Positions 38,443 to 55,605 of a stretch of DNA of 64,000 bases are shown one piece after another (position 1 is the stretch's first letter; every line of letters begins with the position of its first letter). Origin of the DNA: a virus; the IMG/VR virus record IMGVR_UViG_3300032665_001045, positions 3,519 through 67,518 of that record. One strand, written 5' to 3'. The notes below the pieces were generated by a model that was not told the origin of the DNA, did not search any database, and saw only the letters and a program-made list of their open reading frames with translations. The position numbers were made by a program, and so were the translations under genes.

Positions 38443-40215
38443 ATGTTTAGAATAAAAAATCTTACAGTAAGAAACTTCATGAGTGTAGGCAATGCTACAC
38501 AGGCCGTTGAGTTTGACCGTAGAGACTTAACCTTAGTCCTAGGTGAAAACATTGACTTGGGCGGAGATGACAGTGGCGCACGTAATGGTACAGGTAAAAC
38601 TACTATTATCAATGCATTAAGCTATGCTCTATACGGTACAGCACTTACTAATATTAAGAAAGATAACTTAATCAACAAAACTAACGCTAAAGGCATGTTA
38701 GTTACTATTGACTTTGAAGTTAATGGCGAAAGCTATCGTATTGAACGTGGACGTAAGCACAATGTACTTAAATTTTACATTGGTGATGTAGAACGTGAAA
38801 GTAAAGATGATAACAGTCAAGGTGACAGTAGAGAAACCCAGCAAGAAATCGAACGCTTGCTAGGCATGAGCCATGACATGTTTAAACATGTTGTAGCATT
38901 AAACACCTACACTGAACCGTTCTTAAGTCTTAAAGCCAACGATCAACGTACTATTATTGAGCAGTTACTTGGTATTACGTTGTTAAGTGAAAAAGCAGAT
39001 TCTCTTAAAGAGCAGGGTAAAGCTACTAAGGACGCAATACAGCAAGAAGAGTTCAATATTAAAGCGATTACTGATGCTAATAAACGTATCGAAGAGCAAA
39101 TTGAGAGTCTAAAACGTCGACAAACCTTGTGGACTACTAAACACACAGAAGATATCAGTAGATTGCAGACTTCTATCGACGATTTGCAAAAATTAGATAT
39201 TGATGCAGAAATACAAGCACACAAAGACCTAACTGCGTACAATCAAAAACGTAGAGACCTTGCTGATTTAAACACAGCGTTACAGCGTGCCAGCAGTGAT
39301 ATGGATCGCGAACAAAAAACTGTTACAAAACTAGATAAAGAAATTGCTGACCTAAACAATCACAAATGCTATGCCTGCGGACAAGACATGCACGACAGCA
39401 AGCACGAAGAAGTATTATTAAGCAAGGCTAATGCGTTACAAGAAGCGTTAACTGCATATACCACAGCAGAGCAATTACTATTAGAGCTAGGCAATGCTAA
39501 GTCAGCATTAGGTGTATTAGGTCAACAGCCTAAAGTTTACTATGATAAAGAAGAGGATGCTATCCATCATCGTAGCACTGTGGCTAATTTACAAACACAA
39601 TTAGTCAGCAAAACTGCAGAAACTGATCCTTATAGTGAACAGATCGAGGAAATGAAGACCACTGCCTTAGCTGAAATTGATTATACAGTAATGAATGAAC
39701 TAATGCGTGTCAAAGAACACCAAGAATTCTTACTAAAACTATTAACAAACAAAGATTCGTTTATACGTAAACGTATCATTGACCAGAACTTAAGCTACTT
39801 AAATGCCCGATTGAGTTATTATTTAGATAAGATTGGCCTACCGCACACTGTTAAGTTCCAAAATGACCTAAGTGTGCAAATTGAAGAACTAGGTAGAGAG
39901 TTAGATTTTGATAACCTAAGCCGTGGTGAGCGTAATAGACTTATCCTTAGCCTGTCATGGGCATTCCGTGATGTGTGGGAAAGTCTATATCAACCGATTA
40001 ACTTATTGTTTATTGATGAGCTTGTTGATTCGGGCATGGATACTTCAGGTGTAGAAAATGCACTGGCTATCCTTAAGAAAATGACCAGAGAGAATAACAA
40101 AAGTATTTGGTTAGTATCGCATAAAGATGAATTAGCAGGTCGTGTAAACAATATTTTAACAGTAGTTAAAGAAAATGGGTTCACAACATATAACAATGAT
40201 GTCGATGTTACCTAA
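38443..40215 (+). CDS. gp46: Recombination ATPase subunit (SbcC/Rad50-like)
   Basis: Walker A GTGKTT, zinc hook CYAC, signature LSRGE, Walker B LFIDE, long coiled coil. Confidence 0.93.
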   Translation: MFRIKNLTVRNFMSVGNATQAVEFDRRDLTLVLGENIDLGGDDSGARNGTGKTTIINALSYALYGTALTNIKKDNLINKTNAKGMLVTIDFEVNGESYRIERGRKHNVLKFYIGDVERESKDDNSQGDSRETQQEIERLLGMSHDMFKHVVALNTYTEPFLSLKANDQRTIIEQLLGITLLSEKADSLKEQGKATKDAIQQEEFNIKAITDANKRIEEQIESLKRRQTLWTTKHTEDISRLQTSIDDLQKLDIDAEIQAHKDLTAYNQKRRDLADLNTALQRASSDMDREQKTVTKLDKEIADLNNHKCYACGQDMHDSKHEEVLLSKANALQEALTAYTTAEQLLLELGNAKSALGVLGQQPKVYYDKEEDAIHHRSTVANLQTQLVSKTAETDPYSEQIEEMKTTALAEIDYTVMNELMRVKEHQEFLLKLLTNKDSFIRKRIIDQNLSYLNARLSYYLDKIGLPHTVKFQNDLSVQIEELGRELDFDNLSRGERNRLILSLSWAFRDVWESLYQPINLLFIDELVDSGMDTSGVENALAILKKMTRENNKSIWLVSHKDELAGRVNNILTVVKENGFTTYNNDVDVT

Positions 40216-41065
40216 AATATTACATCTAGAACCTACAGATGCTTGTAATGCAGCGTGTCCGCAATGTAGCAGAGAAACTGATCCTACATTTGATAAGTCT
40301 GTGCTACACCATTTAACTGTAGATAATATAGCAGATGCTATTTCAGAAGATACCATCAAAGCATTAGACAAGATGTATATGTGTGGAAATTATGGTGATC
40401 CTGCTGCAGGCAAGCACACCTTAGAAATTTATAGATATTTTCGTAAATTAAACCCCGCAATAACATTGGGTATGAATACCAATGGAGGTCTACGGTCTAC
40501 TGCTTGGTGGAGTTCTTTAGGTGCAATGTTATCTTATCAGAAAGATTATGTAATTTTTAGTATCGACGGATTAAACGATACCAATCACATATACAGAGTA
40601 AATGTTGGTTGGGATAAGGTTATAGAAAATGCGCAGGCATTTATAGCCGCAGGTGGTAGAGCGCACTGGGAGATGCTGGTATTCAAACACAACCAACATC
40701 AGGTAGATCAAGCACAAACATTAGCAAAAGAATTAGGATTTAAATGGTTTCGAGCTAAAGTTAGTCGTCGGCATACTAATCACCCTATATCTTTTTTAAA
40801 TCCCCCTACCGGATGGAAAAATCCTAGTGTAAATATCGGAACTATTGATTGTGTTGCTCTTAAAGAACAAAGTCTATATATTTCTACCAAGGGTATAGTG
40901 TATCCGTGTTGCTGGTTGGGCAATACTAATTATACTTTAGATACTTTTAATAGTATACAGCAATCTTGGGCCGCTACTCCCAATATTATCTGTAAACAAA
41001 CTTGTACAAAAAATGCAACAGGTACAAGTTACTCAAACCAATGGCAACGTGAGGTCGAATTTTGA
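40196..41065 (+). CDS. Radical SAM protein with C-terminal SPASM/twitch-like Cys motif
   Basis: CNAACPQC, GNYGDP, FSIDG, YPCCW...CKQTC; start approximate. Confidence 0.85.
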   Translation: MMSMLPKILHLEPTDACNAACPQCSRETDPTFDKSVLHHLTVDNIADAISEDTIKALDKMYMCGNYGDPAAGKHTLEIYRYFRKLNPAITLGMNTNGGLRSTAWWSSLGAMLSYQKDYVIFSIDGLNDTNHIYRVNVGWDKVIENAQAFIAAGGRAHWEMLVFKHNQHQVDQAQTLAKELGFKWFRAKVSRRHTNHPISFLNPPTGWKNPSVNIGTIDCVALKEQSLYISTKGIVYPCCWLGNTNYTLDTFNSIQQSWAATPNIICKQTCTKNATGTSYSNQWQREVEF

Positions 41066-42078
41066 AATTAGCAACGTGGCATTGGCATATCGAAATATCC
41101 AGTAAGTGTACATTAAAATGTCCGCGCTGTGCTCGCACAGAAGTTCCCGACACCTTAGTAAACACAGAATTAAGTTTAAATTTCTTTAAGAAGAATTTTA
41201 CTCCAGAATTTATACAAGACAACGTAGAAAAGATTACGTTTTGTGGCGACGATGGTGATCCTATATATGCACATAGCTTAATAGACGTGATCGAATATAT
41301 TAAAAGTGTTAAACCAGTGAAATTTGTTATTGTTACCAACGGTAGCTATAAAAATGTTGACTGGTGGGCTAGACTAGGGCAAGCATTAGATCATAATGAT
41401 CATATTCACTTTAGTTTGGATGGATGGGATCAAGGCAGTAACGAACAATATCGTATAAACAGCAATTGGTCGAGTATCATTCAAGGCGTTACTACCTTAC
41501 GCAATAGCAGTCATGTTTATATGACCTGGGATGCTATTGCATTTAAATTTAACGAAGATAAATTAGATGATATGAAATTGTTGGCCAAAGAACTAGGGTT
41601 TGATCAATTTCAGTTGACGTTAAGTACAAAGTTTAATAAAGTATATAGTATATACCCAGAAAGCGACCAATTACAGCCCAAGGATAACTTAATTAGTACT
41701 AACTACAGATTCCAACGGATTTTTACACAATTCAATGAACGTAAAGAAAGTACAGTAGGTGCAAAAACTAATTTAAGATTATATAACCAAGCAGAAACGT
41801 TTGGCGAAGTAACTCCGTTATGTGGAATCGGTAATAAGGGTTTGTTTATCAACAGTCAAGGACATTTATTTCCTTGTTGTTGGGTAGCAAATAGATATTC
41901 ACATAACAACGAGTGGTTAGATGTAAGTAAGAACCAGTTTGATCTGAATCAAAGATCATTAAATGAGGTCCTAAATGACCAGTATTGGAGCGAAGAGTTT
42001 GAAATTTTCTCCAGGACCGAATGTAGGACTAAATGTAATATATCAGTGGTAAATCAGCAGTACGCAACAGAATGGTAA
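41062..42078 (+). CDS. Radical SAM protein with C-terminal SPASM/twitch-like Cys motif
   Basis: CTLKCPRC, GDDGDP, FSLDG, FPCCW...CRTKC; TTG start with GAGG upstream. Confidence 0.85.
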   Translation: MKLATWHWHIEISSKCTLKCPRCARTEVPDTLVNTELSLNFFKKNFTPEFIQDNVEKITFCGDDGDPIYAHSLIDVIEYIKSVKPVKFVIVTNGSYKNVDWWARLGQALDHNDHIHFSLDGWDQGSNEQYRINSNWSSIIQGVTTLRNSSHVYMTWDAIAFKFNEDKLDDMKLLAKELGFDQFQLTLSTKFNKVYSIYPESDQLQPKDNLISTNYRFQRIFTQFNERKESTVGAKTNLRLYNQAETFGEVTPLCGIGNKGLFINSQGHLFPCCWVANRYSHNNEWLDVSKNQFDLNQRSLNEVLNDQYWSEEFEIFSRTECRTKCNISVVNQQYATEW

Positions 42079-42098
42079 TTTCACAAGGAGAAGTAAAA

Positions 42099-42290
42099 AT
42101 GGCAACAAATCATGAACAAATCGTAGCAGCATATGAAGCATACTTAACAGAACATGCTAAATTTGAAGAAAAAGGTGTAGCAGCGGCAGGAACACGTGCT
42201 CGTGGTGCATTAGGCGACCTAGGTAAACTAACCAAAGCTCGTCGTGCAGAAATTCAAGAGAAGAAAAACGCAGCTAAAGCCGCTAAATAA
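42099..42290 (+). CDS. Small basic protein, histone H1-like Hc1 family
   Basis: KFEEKGVAAAGTRARGALGDLGKLTKARRAEIQ pattern; AAGGAG RBS before ATG 42099. Confidence 0.65.
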   Translation: MATNHEQIVAAYEAYLTEHAKFEEKGVAAAGTRARGALGDLGKLTKARRAEIQEKKNAAKAAK

Positions 42291-42293
42291 CTT

Positions 42294-42731
42294 ATGGCAT
42301 CATACGATTATCCTTGGATTTATAACGGTGTAGCATTTGAATCCGAGGATATCGGCACTTATTATGGTTTTATCTACAGAATTACAAATAATATAAATGG
42401 TCACGATTATGTTGGCCGCAAATATTTTACCACAATCAAAAAGAGACCACCTCTAAAAGGCAAGAAAAACAAACGTCGTGAAGTTGTAGAAACAGATTGG
42501 AAGACCTACTGGGGATCTAGTCCGAGACTGCAAGCAGACATCGACACACATGGCAAAGAAAACTTTACTCGCGAAATAATTCACTTATGTGCAAGTAGGG
42601 GCGAAACAAATTATCTAGAGGCATACTATCAATTTAAAGAAAATGTGCTGTTACGAGAAGACAATTATAATGGCATTATCCAAATCAAACTTGGCAAAAA
42701 TTCAGTAAAAGATTTAGTAATAAAGAAGTAA
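42294..42731 (+). CDS. Stand-alone GIY-YIG family nuclease
   Basis: GFIYRITN...YVGRK, YWGSS, GKENFTREI, conserved E (YLEA) and N (YNG). Confidence 0.75.
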   Translation: MASYDYPWIYNGVAFESEDIGTYYGFIYRITNNINGHDYVGRKYFTTIKKRPPLKGKKNKRREVVETDWKTYWGSSPRLQADIDTHGKENFTREIIHLCASRGETNYLEAYYQFKENVLLREDNYNGIIQIKLGKNSVKDLVIKK

Positions 42732-42743
42732 ATTAGCCGCAAT

Positions 42744-43184
42744 TGCAGTTTAAAACTGTATCTAGAGGAGATAGCGCTCGCGTAATGGCCGCGCTTGGAA
42801 CGTGTAGAGTAGACTACACACTGGATGGCACCGACGATCAATTAGGCTTAAACGCCGAATGATGTGGGCTCTGAGAAAAAGATACAACCCACGTGACTAC
42901 TATAGTTGGCTAACTACGGCTATAGAGCATCCGTCAGAAGAAGCAAGAGTAGGGGGTACCGGCTGACCGCCTCCGTGTTAATGATAACAATCTCTTTTAG
43001 TTAGTTTGACTGTCGACTCAGATGAAGCGATCGGTTTGTACTTTGCCTCGGATAGGTGAAGTATGACCAAATCTAGATGAATACGTAAAGAACAAACAAT
43101 AGTTCAAATTAACTAATTTAATTAGATTAGAAGAAAAAGAAATGCATTGAGCGATAGCGATAATGCAGATGTCGCAAGACATCT
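42744..43184 (+). ncRNA. Putative large structured non-coding RNA, family unassigned
   Basis: No long ORF; GC-richer than its flanks; more than ten stems whose G-U wobbles work only on the + strand; two candidate pseudoknot pairings (see findings). Confidence 0.65.
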
Positions 43185-43200
43185 TAAACAAGTAGTCAAT

Positions 43201-43227
43201 AAAAAAGACTATACGAATATAGCCTTT
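43201..43227 (-). terminator. Rho-independent terminator for the gp26/gp51 transcript
   Basis: Minus strand GGCTATA-TTCG-TATAGTC followed by a T-run. Confidence 0.7.
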
Positions 43228-43254
43228 AATATGTACTTTAAGGATAAATATGAC

Positions 43255-43473
43255 TTAAAAGAATGGTAGTCCCGATTTCTTAGTAGTTTCCATATTATCA
43301 TTAACAATTTTACTAATAATATCTTTTTCTTCTTTAGTCAATAACATAGCATCTTCATAAGACAATCCACCACGCATATACCAACACATACGTAATGCCT
43401 CGTCTCTATAGGCTTTTGATTCTTTATCGTAACTTTCGAGTAAAGCTACAATTTCTTCATTATCTAAAATCAA
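43255..43473 (-). CDS. gp51-like baseplate hub assembly protein (probably the C-terminal part of a frameshift product)
   Basis: CWYMRGGLSYEDAMLL...E helical motif; only a TTG start and no clear RBS. Confidence 0.6.
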   Translation of the reverse strand: MILDNEEIVALLESYDKESKAYRDEALRMCWYMRGGLSYEDAMLLTKEEKDIISKIVNDNMETTKKSGLPFF

Positions 43474-44318
43474 AAGCCTTGACCGAAAAAACTTGCATAA
43501 TCAAAGTCAACAGCTAATTTAAATTCATGCTCGCACGCTGTACAAGCAACATCTATTGGTTTAATAGTAACTGCGTCTGATATTTCTTTAATAGCAGTCT
43601 GCACTTGGCGCATAACATCAGATTTGGCATTCGCGTAGAATTCTTTAATAAAATTATGATCTGTAACTATTTGCCCATCTTCGGTTGAGATACTTTCTGT
43701 ACAATTAACTACTGCTTCTAAATTTAGATTAATCATTTTTTGTACATGTGCTTCATACTGTGATTTTCTAACATCGGGGTCTAAATCTGGATCTGCTAGA
43801 GTTTGTATTAGTTTTTCCTCTTCAAACACTGAATTGCCGTTTCTGCTAACCTGCAGATAGTTCATTGGTTTTAGCCTAATAGATAAACCTTCTACATCGA
43901 CTGTTTTAGAATAGTCTGGCATTGTAATAGAACTAAGTACAGCAGGCAGATCTACATCATAATCGTGTTCTTCTCCACATTGTGGACAAATAGAACCGAT
44001 GGCCATTTTTGGTCCATAGCTGGCAATACGTATAGCAATTAATGTACTGTCTACATCTACACTAGGCATCTCCCATGCATTTTTAATACTCGGGCAACAA
44101 CTTTGTATAACATCTACTACACTGGTGCCGTTAATCAACGCATCAGGTGTGCGTAGTGTAATTTCATCACGTGTAGTCATTGGATATACAGGAATTTCTC
44201 CAGTGACTGGCAAATCTAAAGAACCTTGTTTCCAATAACGTCCGCGGCTGGTTAATTTAATATACAGTGCAGGTTGGCGAAAATGTTTCGCTAATGGGTT
44301 ATTGCTTTGTTGAGTCAT
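43470..44318 (-). CDS. gp26: gp26-like baseplate hub assembly chaperone
   Basis: NPLAKHFRQP..YIKL...PMTTRDEI...IRIASYG...CPQCG...CTAC...SFF; start reassigned to ATG 44318. Confidence 0.75.
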   Translation of the reverse strand: MTQQSNNPLAKHFRQPALYIKLTSRGRYWKQGSLDLPVTGEIPVYPMTTRDEITLRTPDALINGTSVVDVIQSCCPSIKNAWEMPSVDVDSTLIAIRIASYGPKMAIGSICPQCGEEHDYDVDLPAVLSSITMPDYSKTVDVEGLSIRLKPMNYLQVSRNGNSVFEEEKLIQTLADPDLDPDVRKSQYEAHVQKMINLNLEAVVNCTESISTEDGQIVTDHNFIKEFYANAKSDVMRQVQTAIKEISDAVTIKPIDVACTACEHEFKLAVDFDYASFFGQGF

Positions 44319-44329
44319 GGTTTTATTCC

Positions 44330-44360
44330 TATAAATATAATTGATATACCTTATATTTAT
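44330..44360. promoter_or_regulatory. Pair of face-to-face late promoters
   Basis: TATAAATA on + (44330-44337) toward the tape measure gene; ATAAATA on - (44354-44360) toward gp26. Confidence 0.6.
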
Positions 44361-44372
44361 TGGTAAACATTT

Positions 44373-47093
44373 ATGGCTGAAAATAACGAAATAGACCAGG
44401 ATCAAATTGATAAGATTAATGATATCCTGAGAGAATTAGGAACTACATTTGAGGATGAAATCAAGCGTCGTCACGTAGGTAGCAAATCTTGGGGTGATGC
44501 TGAAAAAGAAGTAGTAAAATATACTGAAATGTACAAAAAGTCTAGAGAGCAGTATAAGAAAACTGCTCAAGAACTTAATCGAGACATGCAGTCTATTAGA
44601 AAAAGCCTTAATGCTGGAGAAATGTCGGCTGAAGAACTTAGCGATAGATTAGAAACACTGCGTAAAGAAGTCGATAAAACAATCGAGCAAGATAAGAAAA
44701 AAGCTCTATTAGATCAAAAAATGGACCTTGAGCGTCTAAATGCTCAAAATAAAGCCAGTGCTGTGCTTAAAGATGGTGCTTTTCAAACAGCAGGAGCCAT
44801 GGGTGCAGGTATTGCTAAAGCAATAGGTGGATTGGCTAGATCTGCATTAACCAGTAGTGATAGTTTTGAAGTTGCAGGTAGTCTAATGTCTGCGGGTGTT
44901 GATATTATCAACACAGCTAATCAAGGTGGTGCTAATGCACTTAAATCGTTTGGCGCTGCTACAGCAGGCGCAGGTGGTAAAGTTGGAATATTAGGTGCCG
45001 GCGCCGAGATTGCAGGTACAGCACTAGGCGCATTAAGTGACGGAATGACTGAATTAGCTAAAGCCGGTATCGGCTTTATGATAGGTCAGACTAAACAGTT
45101 AATAGGTGGCTTTAATGCAATGTCATCTGCTGGTGCAATATATACTGGCGGTATGACAGAAATGATTAGTACTGCCCAAACCGCAGGAATGACTCTTGAT
45201 CAATTCTCCAAAGCAGTATCAAGTAATACAACAGCATTAGCTAAATCGGGCCTAGGGGTAGGTGATGCAAGTAAACGCATGGCTGGCGCTATGGAAAAAG
45301 GCGGTAAGTCCGCTCAAGCAGGCATGTTTGCTCTAGGTATGAGCATGGAAGACCAAGCTGCAGCCTATGCACAAACAATGGCTACTATGGCTGGTCCAAC
45401 TGGTCAATTAAAAGCCAGCAATGCAGAAGTAGCGGCACAGACACAAGAGTATGCAAAAACTCTTAAAATGGTATCAGACATAACAGGTGAAGATGCTAAA
45501 GCAAAGCAAGAGAAATTAAGACAAGATAACGATACTTTAGCATTTAACGCAGTATTGGACAAAATGTCCGAAAAAGAACGTGCTGCAACAAACAATGCTA
45601 TGATGTTAATGAGCGCAGACCAACAACGTGCATTCCGCGAACAACATTTATACGGCACAATTATTAGTAAAGATTTGGCTGGTACAGCGGCAACTAACAC
45701 AGCTATTGCTAAAAACTTTAATGATACATTCCAAGCATCTAAAAATCATACATTAGATGCTAAGAAAATGGCAGAAATTCAACATGATACTGCTGCTGAC
45801 ATGAAAAAACAATCTGATGAAGCTGGCGCAAGCATTGGTTTAGCTACTTCTGGACCAGCTACTGAAATTGCTAAATCAATGAACGAAATTAATCAATACG
45901 GTCAAAAATTTAGTAATGCACAAAAAGTAGCTGCTGAGATAGCAGAAGCACAGAAAAAAGGTCAGACAGGTCAAGCCGGTGATGAAGTAAAATTACAACA
46001 ACAACAACAACAATTTATGCTAGAACAGCAGGCACTTGCAGCAAAAAATCTAGGATTGTTTAGTAAAGCATTAGAAGAATCACAAAAAGCTGCAATTTTA
46101 GCAGTAAAAGCATTAGGTTCATTAGCTGAAACTGCTAAGGAAAACCCAATCAAAGCAGGTATATTAGCTGCACTACCTGCTATACTTGGTTTTGTGGGAC
46201 CAATGTTATTGTCAAAGTTTGCTGGCGGAAAATTTGGAGTACTAGGCACACCAGGAAATCCAATGCACGTTACCATGGGTGGTGGCGGTGGCGGGCCTGA
46301 TTTAAGTGACCTTGGCGGTGGAGAGAAAGGTGGCAAAGGTAAAGGGCTAACACAGGATAAATCAGGTAAATGGCGCAATGAAAAAGGTCAGTTTGCCAGC
46401 AAAGCTGAAATTGCTGAACATCTGGCAGAAAAAGAAGCCAAGCAAGCTGGTGGAGTAATGAGCAAGTTTAAGCAATTTGGCAAAATAGGTGGTAAGGCAT
46501 TAGGTATTGCGGGTGCTGTAGCGAGTCTTGGTATGATGGCTAAAGACTTATACGATACTTCAAAAGATACTAAATTAACTACAGGACAAAAACACGAAAA
46601 AGAAGGTGGTATTGTTGGCGAAGGTCTAGGTGGTGCTGGTGGTGCATGGGCCGGAGCTGCATTAGGTGCCGCTAATCCTGTTGCACTTGCACTAGATCCA
46701 TTTACATTTGGTATGTCATCTGTAGTTGGTGGAGCCCTTGGTGGGGCATTGGGTTATTGGGGTGGTAGTAAACTTGGCGGAATGGCAGGTAAAGCCGTTA
46801 TGAAAGATAAACCAGTTGCACCGGCCGCACCAACTACACCAGCTGCACATCCTTCTCCTAGTGTACAAAATACTGCGCCTAAACCACCTACATCAGATCA
46901 TGCAGTTACTACTGCTTCTGCAGCATTAGCAACAACCCAAGCAGAAGAAAAAGCAAGAAAAGATGCTATGGTTACACCTGCGGCTAATTTACCACCGGGC
47001 GTACAGCAACAAATTGAGTTATTGCAGCAAATATTAACAACAATGTTAAAAAATAATCAAATAACAAATGGAATATTGCAACACTCAATGTAA
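44373..47093 (+). CDS. Tape measure protein (putative)
   Basis: 906 aa, helical, A/G/K-rich, glycine-zipper hydrophobic segments; next to the gp26-like chaperone. Confidence 0.7.
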   Translation: MAENNEIDQDQIDKINDILRELGTTFEDEIKRRHVGSKSWGDAEKEVVKYTEMYKKSREQYKKTAQELNRDMQSIRKSLNAGEMSAEELSDRLETLRKEVDKTIEQDKKKALLDQKMDLERLNAQNKASAVLKDGAFQTAGAMGAGIAKAIGGLARSALTSSDSFEVAGSLMSAGVDIINTANQGGANALKSFGAATAGAGGKVGILGAGAEIAGTALGALSDGMTELAKAGIGFMIGQTKQLIGGFNAMSSAGAIYTGGMTEMISTAQTAGMTLDQFSKAVSSNTTALAKSGLGVGDASKRMAGAMEKGGKSAQAGMFALGMSMEDQAAAYAQTMATMAGPTGQLKASNAEVAAQTQEYAKTLKMVSDITGEDAKAKQEKLRQDNDTLAFNAVLDKMSEKERAATNNAMMLMSADQQRAFREQHLYGTIISKDLAGTAATNTAIAKNFNDTFQASKNHTLDAKKMAEIQHDTAADMKKQSDEAGASIGLATSGPATEIAKSMNEINQYGQKFSNAQKVAAEIAEAQKKGQTGQAGDEVKLQQQQQQFMLEQQALAAKNLGLFSKALEESQKAAILAVKALGSLAETAKENPIKAGILAALPAILGFVGPMLLSKFAGGKFGVLGTPGNPMHVTMGGGGGGPDLSDLGGGEKGGKGKGLTQDKSGKWRNEKGQFASKAEIAEHLAEKEAKQAGGVMSKFKQFGKIGGKALGIAGAVASLGMMAKDLYDTSKDTKLTTGQKHEKEGGIVGEGLGGAGGAWAGAALGAANPVALALDPFTFGMSSVVGGALGGALGYWGGSKLGGMAGKAVMKDKPVAPAAPTTPAAHPSPSVQNTAPKPPTSDHAVTTASAALATTQAEEKARKDAMVTPAANLPPGVQQQIELLQQILTTMLKNNQITNGILQHSM

Positions 47094-54489: not shown

Positions 54490-54563
54490 TGGTGCAGTTG
54501 ACGGGAGTCAAACCCGTTACCAGGAGTTTTAGAGGCTCTTGCTATTCGATCAGCTTCAACTGC
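54490..54563 (-). tRNA. tRNA with CUA anticodon (amber suppressor type), non-canonical
   Basis: 74 nt: acceptor GCAGTTG/CAACTGC, A73, encoded CCA; D arm GCTG/TAGC; anticodon loop CT-CTA-AA; T arm ACGGG/CCCGT with loop TTTGACT. Confidence 0.85.
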
Positions 54564-54610: not shown

Positions 54611-54678
54611 ATAAATATATGTGTTCGCCCTTAATCGGAAGGGTTTATGCGGTCCCCACCGCGTATAGCCTAGAACGC
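54611..54678 (+). promoter_or_regulatory. Late promoter (ATAAATA) followed by a structured 5' leader
   Basis: ATAAATA at 54611-54617, then a three-stem GC-rich element before the AAGGAG RBS. Confidence 0.55.
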
Positions 54679-54702
54679 TAAACTTATACAAGGAGAAAAC
54701 AA

Positions 54703-55605
54703 ATGGGACGTCCTCTAAAAAGAAAATATTTTGGTGTTAGTAACGTTAATGACGGCCAATCATACAGCGGTACTGGTGGTGAAAGCGTAGTTAGCTTTAC
54801 TATTACTAACGTTGGTAGTAACTATTCACAAGGTGTAACATTAAGTGTAGCACCAAGTCCAATTGGTGGTACTACAGCATTAGATAGTTACACAGAAGCT
54901 GCTAACGGTTCTATCATGACAGTCACAGTGTCAAATGGTGGTACAGGTTACGATACTGCACCAGCAGTTACAATCAACAAACCAGGTAACGTTGCTACTA
55001 CAGCTACAAGTTACTATCCAGCCAGCAATGTACTTACAGTAGGTACTACGACAGGTTTATATATTGGTATGGCGGCTAACGTAGGATTTAGTTCAACTGC
55101 ACGCATTACTACAATTTATACAGCTAACTCAAATGTTGTATTAAGTGGTTCAAACACTGCGGCATTAAGTGGTACACCAATTAGCTTCGGTGATATCGGT
55201 TCTGGTGCAGCAATTACTGCGGTATTAGCAAGTCCAAACACTACAGCTAACACAATACAAGCTAACGCATGGATTACTGGTGGCACGATTGGTAAAATTG
55301 CTGACATTGTTAAACAAGAAGGCGCACGTCGTTATAAAGTAGTTAATGCAGATGGTACAGCATTAGTTAACCTATATGGTAATGCGGCTATAGTAGCAGC
55401 AGGTGGTCCAATTGGTCCAGGTCAAATGACTATTACAGCAACAGATTCAGCTGGTGGTACTTATTTCGTTGAAAAACTATATGATCGTACAGCTACCTTG
55501 AATCCGATAACTGGTACACAATTTACTCACTATCAAAAAGTAAAATGGGTATTCAATGGTCCGGCTGTTCTTAACACAAGCGTGACTTTAGCACAAAACA
55601 ACTAA
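54703..55605 (+). CDS. Virion structural protein (possibly head decoration)
   Basis: T/G/A-rich beta protein; monocistronic with late promoter, strong RBS and terminator. Confidence 0.6.
   Translation: MGRPLKRKYFGVSNVNDGQSYSGTGGESVVSFTITNVGSNYSQGVTLSVAPSPIGGTTALDSYTEAANGSIMTVTVSNGGTGYDTAPAVTINKPGNVATTATSYYPASNVLTVGTTTGLYIGMAANVGFSSTARITTIYTANSNVVLSGSNTAALSGTPISFGDIGSGAAITAVLASPNTTANTIQANAWITGGTIGKIADIVKQEGARRYKVVNADGTALVNLYGNAAIVAAGGPIGPGQMTITATDSAGGTYFVEKLYDRTATLNPITGTQFTHYQKVKWVFNGPAVLNTSVTLAQNN

Follow-up and report, generated by a model that had tools for sequence, protein, structure and literature searches.

A pseudoknotted RNA with two matched loops in a lineage of very large freshwater phages

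Comparative sequence analysis identifies a structured non-coding RNA of ~440 nt, read from the + strand between about 42744 and 43183 of a 64-kb stretch of viral DNA (hereafter the window; its source record is a 67.5-kb fragment). As resolved by covariation, the fold joins a 5' domain that differs between lineages to a multiply pseudoknotted core (PK1, PK3, an AGAG/CUCU helix and a G-rich hairpin) and a conserved 3' module of two hairpins. The RNA is limited to a single lineage of very large freshwater phages, in which two of its loops, R1 and R2, change together. We give roughly even odds (about 0.5) to the reading that it acts as a stand-alone, trans-acting scaffold RNA of large freshwater myophages, with two matched recognition loops for one external partner.

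The RNA lies in a stretch devoid of long ORFs that separates + strand genes on the gp46 side from baseplate genes on the - strand (Table 1). The G+C content is 0.43-0.47 across 42700-43100, compared to ~0.35 in the surroundings. A protein-coding reading was rejected, since the longest ORF overlapping the gap at 42732-43254 has 58 aa on either strand, in agreement with an earlier note made from the window sequence, and relatives differ by indels of 1-2 nt. Among the upstream genes, the second radical-SAM (rSAM) gene shows weak SPASM and Fer4_12 matches below cut-offs, and the adjacent pair of radical-SAM genes is found in many, not all, relatives.

Homologues were collected from IMG/VR in two sets. 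Of 80 loci fetched with the GIY-YIG protein as query, 75 carry a homologue of 42732-43207 at 70-96% DNA identity, in 57 distinct sequences. A 28-nt pattern taken from the best-conserved stretch and matched exactly brought in at least 120 further stretches, and nhmmer detected the element in 199/200 fetched loci. Distant loci align over the core only (about 42856-43094). Synteny is constant among the fetched loci, with gp46-side genes on the + strand, baseplate genes on the - strand and the RNA at the junction; the upstream genes vary (rSAM, Hc1, GIY-YIG or PDDEXK, inserted genes) and the RNA is retained. Two complete genomes, G007 (329,321 bp) and G008 (346,856 bp), hold one copy each and show that the RNA-bearing lineage is jumbo-sized. 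Both have direct terminal repeats and are rated 100% complete; for 180-kb contigs, CheckV gives a completeness of ~50%. Similarity of gp46 points to the jumbo myophages PA5oct (50% identity), Phosso and Atu_ph07 as closest relatives in culture. The syntenic region of PA5oct yielded no homologue of the RNA with nhmmer, and GenBank phages gave no DNA match at the sensitivity of blastn. When the 28-nt pattern was run against 185,579 species genomes, two matches were obtained, both in one MAG labelled Haliscomenobacter. The matches are loci L209 and L210, on contigs of 148 and 183 kb, most likely of phage origin and binned together with the MAG; the label is possibly a hint at the host.

Folded as a single sequence, the element has an unremarkable minimum free energy (z -1.38 on the + strand, -1.02 on the - strand), and the case for an RNA thus rests on the comparison of relatives. 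RNAalifold gave -159.7 on the + strand versus -125.7 on the - strand for 45 close sequences, and the consensus fold of 38 close sequences has 68 predicted pairs, 24 of them with compensatory double changes. A wider set of 74 sequences, less than 93% identical, was aligned with structure-blind MAFFT and the structure was imposed by window coordinates; L063, L115, L126 and L120 were dropped because of large insertions. In this alignment, 80.9% of 4926 cells are standard pairs, compared to 39-44% when the 3' partners were slid by 1-3 columns. The covariation score was 0.324 against at most 0.10 in the slid controls, and 0/500 shuffles reached the observed value for any of five measures. Several pairs are invariant G-U or U-G in the 38- and 74-sequence alignments. 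Since these would be A-C mismatches on the opposite strand, they indicate an RNA read from the + strand, which together with the RNAalifold energies bears out the earlier note's point that the G-U pairs suit that strand only. Lineage insertions of 35-63 nt are placed at hairpin tips. The locus could also be read at the DNA level, as origin iterons or a homing-endonuclease target whose RNA structure is incidental, given that R1 and R2 are direct repeats and that nuclease genes adjoin. This reading is disfavoured and, in our estimate, highly improbable: compensatory changes keep the pairing, including G-U pairs valid on one strand only, and pseudoknot partners are rewritten together.

Table 1. 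Genes and RNA features of the locus, in window positions. Percentages are cells paired in the 74-sequence alignment, unless another set is named.
Feature	Position	Strand	Observation
gp46-like recombination nuclease subunit	38443-40215	+	
Two radical-SAM genes	40175-42078	+	
Hc1-like basic protein	42099-42290	+	
SegE-type GIY-YIG protein, 145 aa	42294-42731	+	PF19835, E 8e-38
~520 nt without long ORF	about 42732-43254		
H0, 5' hairpin UGCAGUU/AACUGUA	42744-42760	+	Folds in 27/27 distinct versions among 45 close relatives
5' three-way domain	42757-42830	+	P1 encloses P2 and P3
P1	42757-65/42821-30	+	Both sides changed in 2-17/38 sequences per pair
P2	42773-77/42791-95	+	Both sides changed in 7-17/38 sequences per pair
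P3	42802-07/42814-19	+	Both sides changed in 6-20/38 sequences per pair
Pa, small hairpin GGC/GCC, then conserved junction AAUGAU	42845-42856	+	65.9%
Pb, hairpin with conserved 19-nt loop	42864-42892	+	88.6%; one pair UA 37, CG 20, GC 13
Pc, hairpin CTATAGTTG/CGGCTATAG, 42900-08/42917-25	42900-42925	+	Loop 42909-16 is one strand of pseudoknot 1
PK1, 42909-16 with 42998-43005	42909-43005	+	98.3% and 93.3%
PK3 (new), 42933-37 with 42963-67, in loop of G-rich hairpin	42933-42967	+	92.2%
AGAG/CUCU helix, 42946-49/42992-95, enclosing G-rich hairpin and Pv	42946-42995	+	100%; AU 48, UA 22, GC 4
G-rich hairpin GGGGGT/GCCTCC	42952-57/42969-74	+	100%; GC 59, AU 15
Pv, variable hairpin TGTTA/TAACA	42976-80/42985-89	+	92% and 79% in two parts
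Pd, short variable stem presenting loop R1	43010-43034	+	Stem of at least 3 bp around R1 in 103/122 sequences
Pe, 13-bp hairpin between R1 and R2, 43036-48/43054-66	43036-43066	+	86.8%
R2, twin of R1	43071-43082	+	Closing stem of at least 3 bp in 73/122 sequences
M1, hairpin with conserved GA / GA(A/U) internal loop around 2-bp mini-stem 43151-52/43157-58	43143-43167	+	
M2, 6-bp hairpin with GCAA loop	43168-43183	+	98.1%
72-aa ORF	43255-43473	-	
T4_baseplate protein	43470-44405	-	

Most stems proposed in the earlier note are borne out by the alignments. H0, with which the proposed element began, varies at its fifth pair (U-A, A-U, G-C or C-G in relatives) with pairing kept, and the proposed stems AGCGC/GCGCT (42773-95) and GTGTAG/CTACAC (42802-19), here P2 and P3, show double changes in the close set. 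The 5' domain as a whole differs between lineages, distant ones carrying another. All 3/3 pairs of Pa have changes on both sides. Pairing likewise upholds GTGGG/CCCAC (42864-68/42888-92), the G-rich hairpin, TGTTA/TAACA, AGAG/CTCT within a proposed AAGAG/CTCTT, and a long hairpin placed at 43039-63 and now set as Pe, in which 7/13 pairs have changes on both sides. Pc, another of its hairpins, covaries clearly in the close set; in the wide MAFFT alignment the stem is misaligned and 58% of cells are paired. Pv bears lineage-specific insertions, and the Pd stems are 41-46% paired in the MAFFT alignment.

The long-range pairings called for more revision. Covariation is strong and extends to PK1, one of the two pseudoknots that the note had drawn, in which many pair types occur (AU 37/UA 26; CG 37/UA 27; UA 39/AU 14/UG 10) and whose loop and partner strand are, in distant lineages, rewritten together as a whole. 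The second proposed pseudoknot (42870-75/43017-22) is without covariation, being 74.8% paired through conservation only. Four of its pairs are conserved and able to form. Its single variable pair (UA 28, UG 26, CG 9, other 11) shows no coupling, CTCC being found with A 8 times and with G 10 times, and CTCT with A 25 and with G 26 times, and we rejected it. A proposed helix CTG(G)ATGG/CCGTCAG (42821-28/42931-37) also had to be abandoned: 42821-30 pairs with 42757-65, and 42933-37 pairs with 42963-67 instead, in PK3, whose pair types include UA 39/CG 35 and GC 41/AU 32. A closure between 42760-66 and 43072-78 fell away as well, since its first strand sits in P1 and its second is loop R2.

Downstream of a variable A+T-rich linker, M1 and M2 form the 3' module. 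The outer stem of M1 is 5-7 bp long; a stem of at least 5 bp was found in 102/114 sequences, with 33 distinct 5' strands, compared to 321/2000 cross-pairings. The mini-stem of M1 is 98.7% paired and covaries (GC 100/AU 10/GU 3), and M2 pairs also change in type (GC 50/UA 33/CG 23; CG 57/GC 30/AU 10). With the covarying H0 at one end and the M1/M2 module at the other, the RNA spans about 42744-43183. The start given in the earlier note thus stands, whereas its end, 43085, does not, and M2 probably forms the 3' terminus.

A short variable hairpin presents R1 (43016-27) as its loop, and R2 lies 3' of Pe; the two loops are 11-12 nt long, 55 nt apart, and flank Pe. In many relatives a covarying stem of 3-7 bp closes R2 as an 11-nt loop, and in the window and part of the close clade R2 has no clear closing stem. 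The loops share a pattern with three variable positions (A/G; G/A/C; A/U) and a rare U/C position. Regular expressions with the variable positions left open, run on 125 distinct cores, recovered both loops in 122, and the variable positions were identical in 122/122. All eight of the eight combinations of the three main variable positions (R, N, W) occur. The odd cores L102, L110 and L185 have very different loops, with R1 still resembling R2. By mutual information over the 74-sequence alignment, each variable R1 column is most strongly linked to its R2 twin (0.87-1.06 bits); the next-best values, at most 0.48 bits, fall in neighbouring variable stems. With the loop columns left out of the tree, the three variable positions require a minimum of 19, 18 and 14 changes, and independent pairs on supported branches agree in direction in 8/8, 10/10 and 7/7 cases, counts that could be inflated if an R1-Pe-R2 cassette moves by recombination.

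Identity of this kind might arise by copying. However, positions 2-4 are fixed in the 122 regular sequences as C-U-C in R1 and U-C-U in R2, a difference that makes simple repeat copying or plain gene conversion unlikely. Selection for equality, rather than copying, is the better reading. Mutual pairing of R1 with R2 was rejected: at most 6-7/8 pairs form, the mixed state that would pair best (R1=A, R2=G) is never seen, and the divergent loops of L110 are not complementary.

We searched for a nucleic-acid partner of the loops as complements to their variants. Within ±330 nt of the RNA, complements to the own variant numbered 3 in 118 sequences, as against 15 in 826 for other variants, and in whole loci they occurred at 0.49 (own) versus 0.505 (other) per 10 kb. 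None above chance was found in the 64-kb window, its 67.5-kb record or the 178-kb record of L110. With G-U pairs allowed, 10-mers gave scattered, wobble-rich matches in G007 and G008, the sole perfect one being the opposite strand of the element itself. An internal guide covarying with the variable positions of R1 and R2 was likewise not found, either among the ±330 nt complements or by mutual information. The absence of an enriched complement in the RNA, the loci and two complete genomes suggests that a nucleic-acid partner is probably not phage-encoded. Codons for GFIY in the GIY-YIG gene (window about 42368-42376) are complementary to some loop variants, and match the own variant in five loci (L035, L117, L062, L068, L024); the window and other loci with those variants show no such match, and we judged this pairing a coincidence.

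These observations are consistent with an RNA that would be transcribed from the + strand where the gp46-side gene block ends, and whose knotted core would form a rigid scaffold displaying R1 and R2 as a matched recognition pair. One common partner, not encoded by the phage, would read or base-pair with both loops. This partner would most likely be a nucleic acid of the host or some other rapidly changing host factor, for example a defence component, and a change in it would oblige both loops to change together. That a host partner should vary at three positions in all eight combinations would be surprising, which counts against this scaffold reading. More tentatively, and at well under even odds, the RNA may be a bivalent, programmable recognition device, with a fixed scaffold and two copies of an 11-nt address that is rewritten in lock-step. 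If true, such rewriting would have taken place at least 14-19 times in our sample, following or evading a fast-changing host target such as a host RNA or defence system. In a still stranger variant of this device, the loops would touch via same-base pairs (A-A, G-G, U-U), which would directly require identity.

Two equal sites on either side of a conserved hairpin, and a multiply pseudoknotted core with invariant unpaired nucleotides, would also fit a self-processing ribozyme, in which a catalytic core acts on R1 and R2 as equivalent processing sites to release or circularise the Pe segment. R1 and R2 would then have to look alike to one active site. Several results make such a ribozyme an unlikely explanation. 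No internal guide covaries with the loops, and no known ribozyme family matches. The HDV ribozyme has the strand order P1-P2-P3-P3'-P1'-P4-P4'-P2', whereas the helices here follow the order PK3, AGAG, G5 (the G-rich hairpin), PK3', G5', Pv, Pv', AGAG', with the 3' strand of PK3 inside the G5 loop; since there was no HDV-type Rfam match either, an HDV-like ribozyme was rejected. An R1-R2 joint did not appear over this stretch in the contigs of relatives, a result of little weight as the contigs are probably DNA.

A scan for promoters and terminators beside the element gave no convincing site: there is no promoter-like site just upstream and no U-rich terminator after M2. The RNA may therefore be just the 3' part of an mRNA. 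On the opposite strand we noticed by eye a hairpin, GGCTATA/TATAGTC, followed by TTTTTT (window 43204-43232), which resembles a terminator of the baseplate-side genes that converge on the RNA; it was not among the sites listed by the consensus scan. The undetected promoter, and the constant position of the RNA as the last (3') feature of the + block, opposite convergent baseplate genes, would suit a cis-acting 3' element of the upstream operon, either a nuclease-resistant cap or an insulator or terminator between convergent units. We hold a cis role of this kind to be improbable. The 440 nt, three pseudoknots and sequence-invariant loops far exceed the needs of a cap, a cis element offers no reason for the identity of R1 and R2, and the RNA stays while the upstream genes change (rSAM, Hc1, GIY-YIG/PDDEXK, insertions).

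The earlier note had placed the element immediately after the GIY-YIG gene, and we surveyed 165 loci with at least 900 nt of upstream sequence for the nearest upstream nuclease. It is a GIY-YIG protein in 155/165 (124 with the gene end no more than 350 nt from the core motif, 31 with it farther away) and a PDDEXK nuclease in 9/165; none was detected in one locus, L198, where Pfam assigns PDDEXK_15. The placement is thus not specific to GIY-YIG, PDDEXK_15 taking that place in the 9/165; these proportions are biased, as 80 loci had been fetched with the GIY-YIG protein itself. The GIY-YIG and PDDEXK_15 nucleases are mutually exclusive. Short GIY-YIG genes, long ones with NUMOD3 (as in L166) and PDDEXK_15 genes swap at one position (L151, L193, L198, L147 and others), as would be expected if a junction nuclease beside gp46/47 had been replaced non-orthologously. 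A RusA-like resolvase in the same neighbourhood of PA5oct (L246 9520-10017) fits a pattern of interchangeable junction resolvases next to gp46/47.

A nuclease gene upstream in 164/165 loci raises the question of whether the RNA is a cofactor or guide of the adjacent small nuclease, a 145-aa GIY-YIG protein without DNA-binding domain (the Pfam match covers residues 8-124) or a PDDEXK_15 protein. The two equal loops would in that case address two equal DNA half-sites, and they do vary as guides do. We rate a cofactor or guide as very unlikely. Apart from the bias in the count and the PA5oct resolvase, more than 350 nt separate the upstream GIY-YIG gene from the core motif in 31/165 loci, several of them with an extra 0.8-1.2 kb between gene and RNA. 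A GIY-YIG homologue is widespread in cyanophages and Melnitz phage (486 records), and the three cultured phages examined have no large non-coding gap after it. No target complement was found in the loci or complete genomes. Guide RNAs of the omega-RNA or HEARO-like kind are obligately linked to one cognate nuclease and have a variable segment complementary to a target; here a nuclease is always nearby but belongs to two unrelated families, and a complement of the loops was not found. The link to GIY-YIG is probably one of synteny only, and the nuclease gene would be a syntenic neighbour rather than a cofactor, with the RNA as a separate gene.

We compared the RNA with the 4227 covariance models of Rfam 15, taking a score at or above the gathering threshold as a match. 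Over the whole window, only freshwater-2 (54627-54705) and a tRNA (54493-54563) reached that score; the freshwater-2 RNA lies on the + strand (67.8 bits) and the tRNA gene 64 nt from it on the - strand. In 42500-43400 at E up to 10, only Ysr49 appeared, outside the core and at 14.3 bits against a gathering score of 95, so the element matches no family at the gathering score or at E up to 10. ARAGORN found 0 tmRNA or tRNA genes in 42000-44000. Together with the covariation, these searches support the earlier proposal of an undescribed structured phage RNA on the + strand. A group I intron was rejected for lack of an Intron_gpI match (E up to 10), and an intron in a split gene because the upstream gene has its own stop at 42731 and the next gene is on the opposite strand. 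A sponge of the CsrB/RsmZ type needs repeated GGA in hairpin loops and was rejected too, since the loops have GGA in 57/122 sequences and AGA in 65/122.

The twin loops resemble the boxB hairpins of lambdoid nutL and nutR, a pair of hairpins that share one loop sequence within a phage, are read by one protein (N) and differ between related phages. However, the 15-nt boxB hairpins belong to two separate transcripts and have a co-evolving phage protein as their reader, whereas R1 and R2 stand 55 nt apart in one large knotted RNA and a cognate reader was not found. In phi29 pRNA, exposed loops also vary between relatives on a conserved scaffold; those loops are mutually complementary and covary by pairing, whereas R1 and R2 are identical, and the present RNA has no packaging-motor context. 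There was no covariance-model match to GOLLD, ROOL, HEARO, OLE or raiA, families that we take to be included in Rfam 15. The RNA is like GOLLD, ROOL, OLE and raiA in having several hundred nucleotides, many helices and pseudoknots, and in that their functions were unknown when they were discovered; like it, GOLLD and ROOL occur in phages. Its architecture differs from all four, and we know of no description of twin loops changing in step for any of them. GOLLD, ROOL and OLE form homo-oligomeric complexes, according to PMC12286853.

When 14 and then 6 related loci were compared with Rfam, the only match was Polynucleobacter-1 (RF01718), beside the core in L102 (9817-9956, - strand) and L119 (240-379, - strand), at 39.2 bits against a gathering score of 37. 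The match shares the strand of the core and lies next to it on the 5' side, ending 45 nt before it. Neither 42500-43400 of the window at E up to 10 nor five further loci at E up to 1 contained it, and it was rejected as a general 5' domain because it occurs in L102 and L119 only. Polynucleobacter-1 is listed as 'Burkholderiales, fresh water/estuary' in PMC2864571; like the present RNA, it comes from fresh water and lacks an assigned function. It represents, in one lineage, a neighbour of the RNA or an alternative 5' domain and is not the same RNA, and its position next to the core suggests that at least some members of this orphan motif may belong to these phages. We found no description of the present RNA in the literature searched. 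PMC10690425 reports more than ten thousand unnamed viral candidates; the passages covered do not mention the element, which may already be contained in such unnamed IMG/VR candidate lists.

Since no known family or architecture matches, we rate the RNA as a new class. RNAs that are large, highly structured and still lack an assigned role are uncommon, and those solved to date have all opened new biology. This one is abundant, with at least 120 IMG/VR contigs matching one exact 28-nt pattern, and sequence alone suffices to determine its fold well. Loops that are kept equal, not complementary, are an unusual evolutionary signal that points to a specific, testable interaction, and the loops themselves provide an experimental handle on it.
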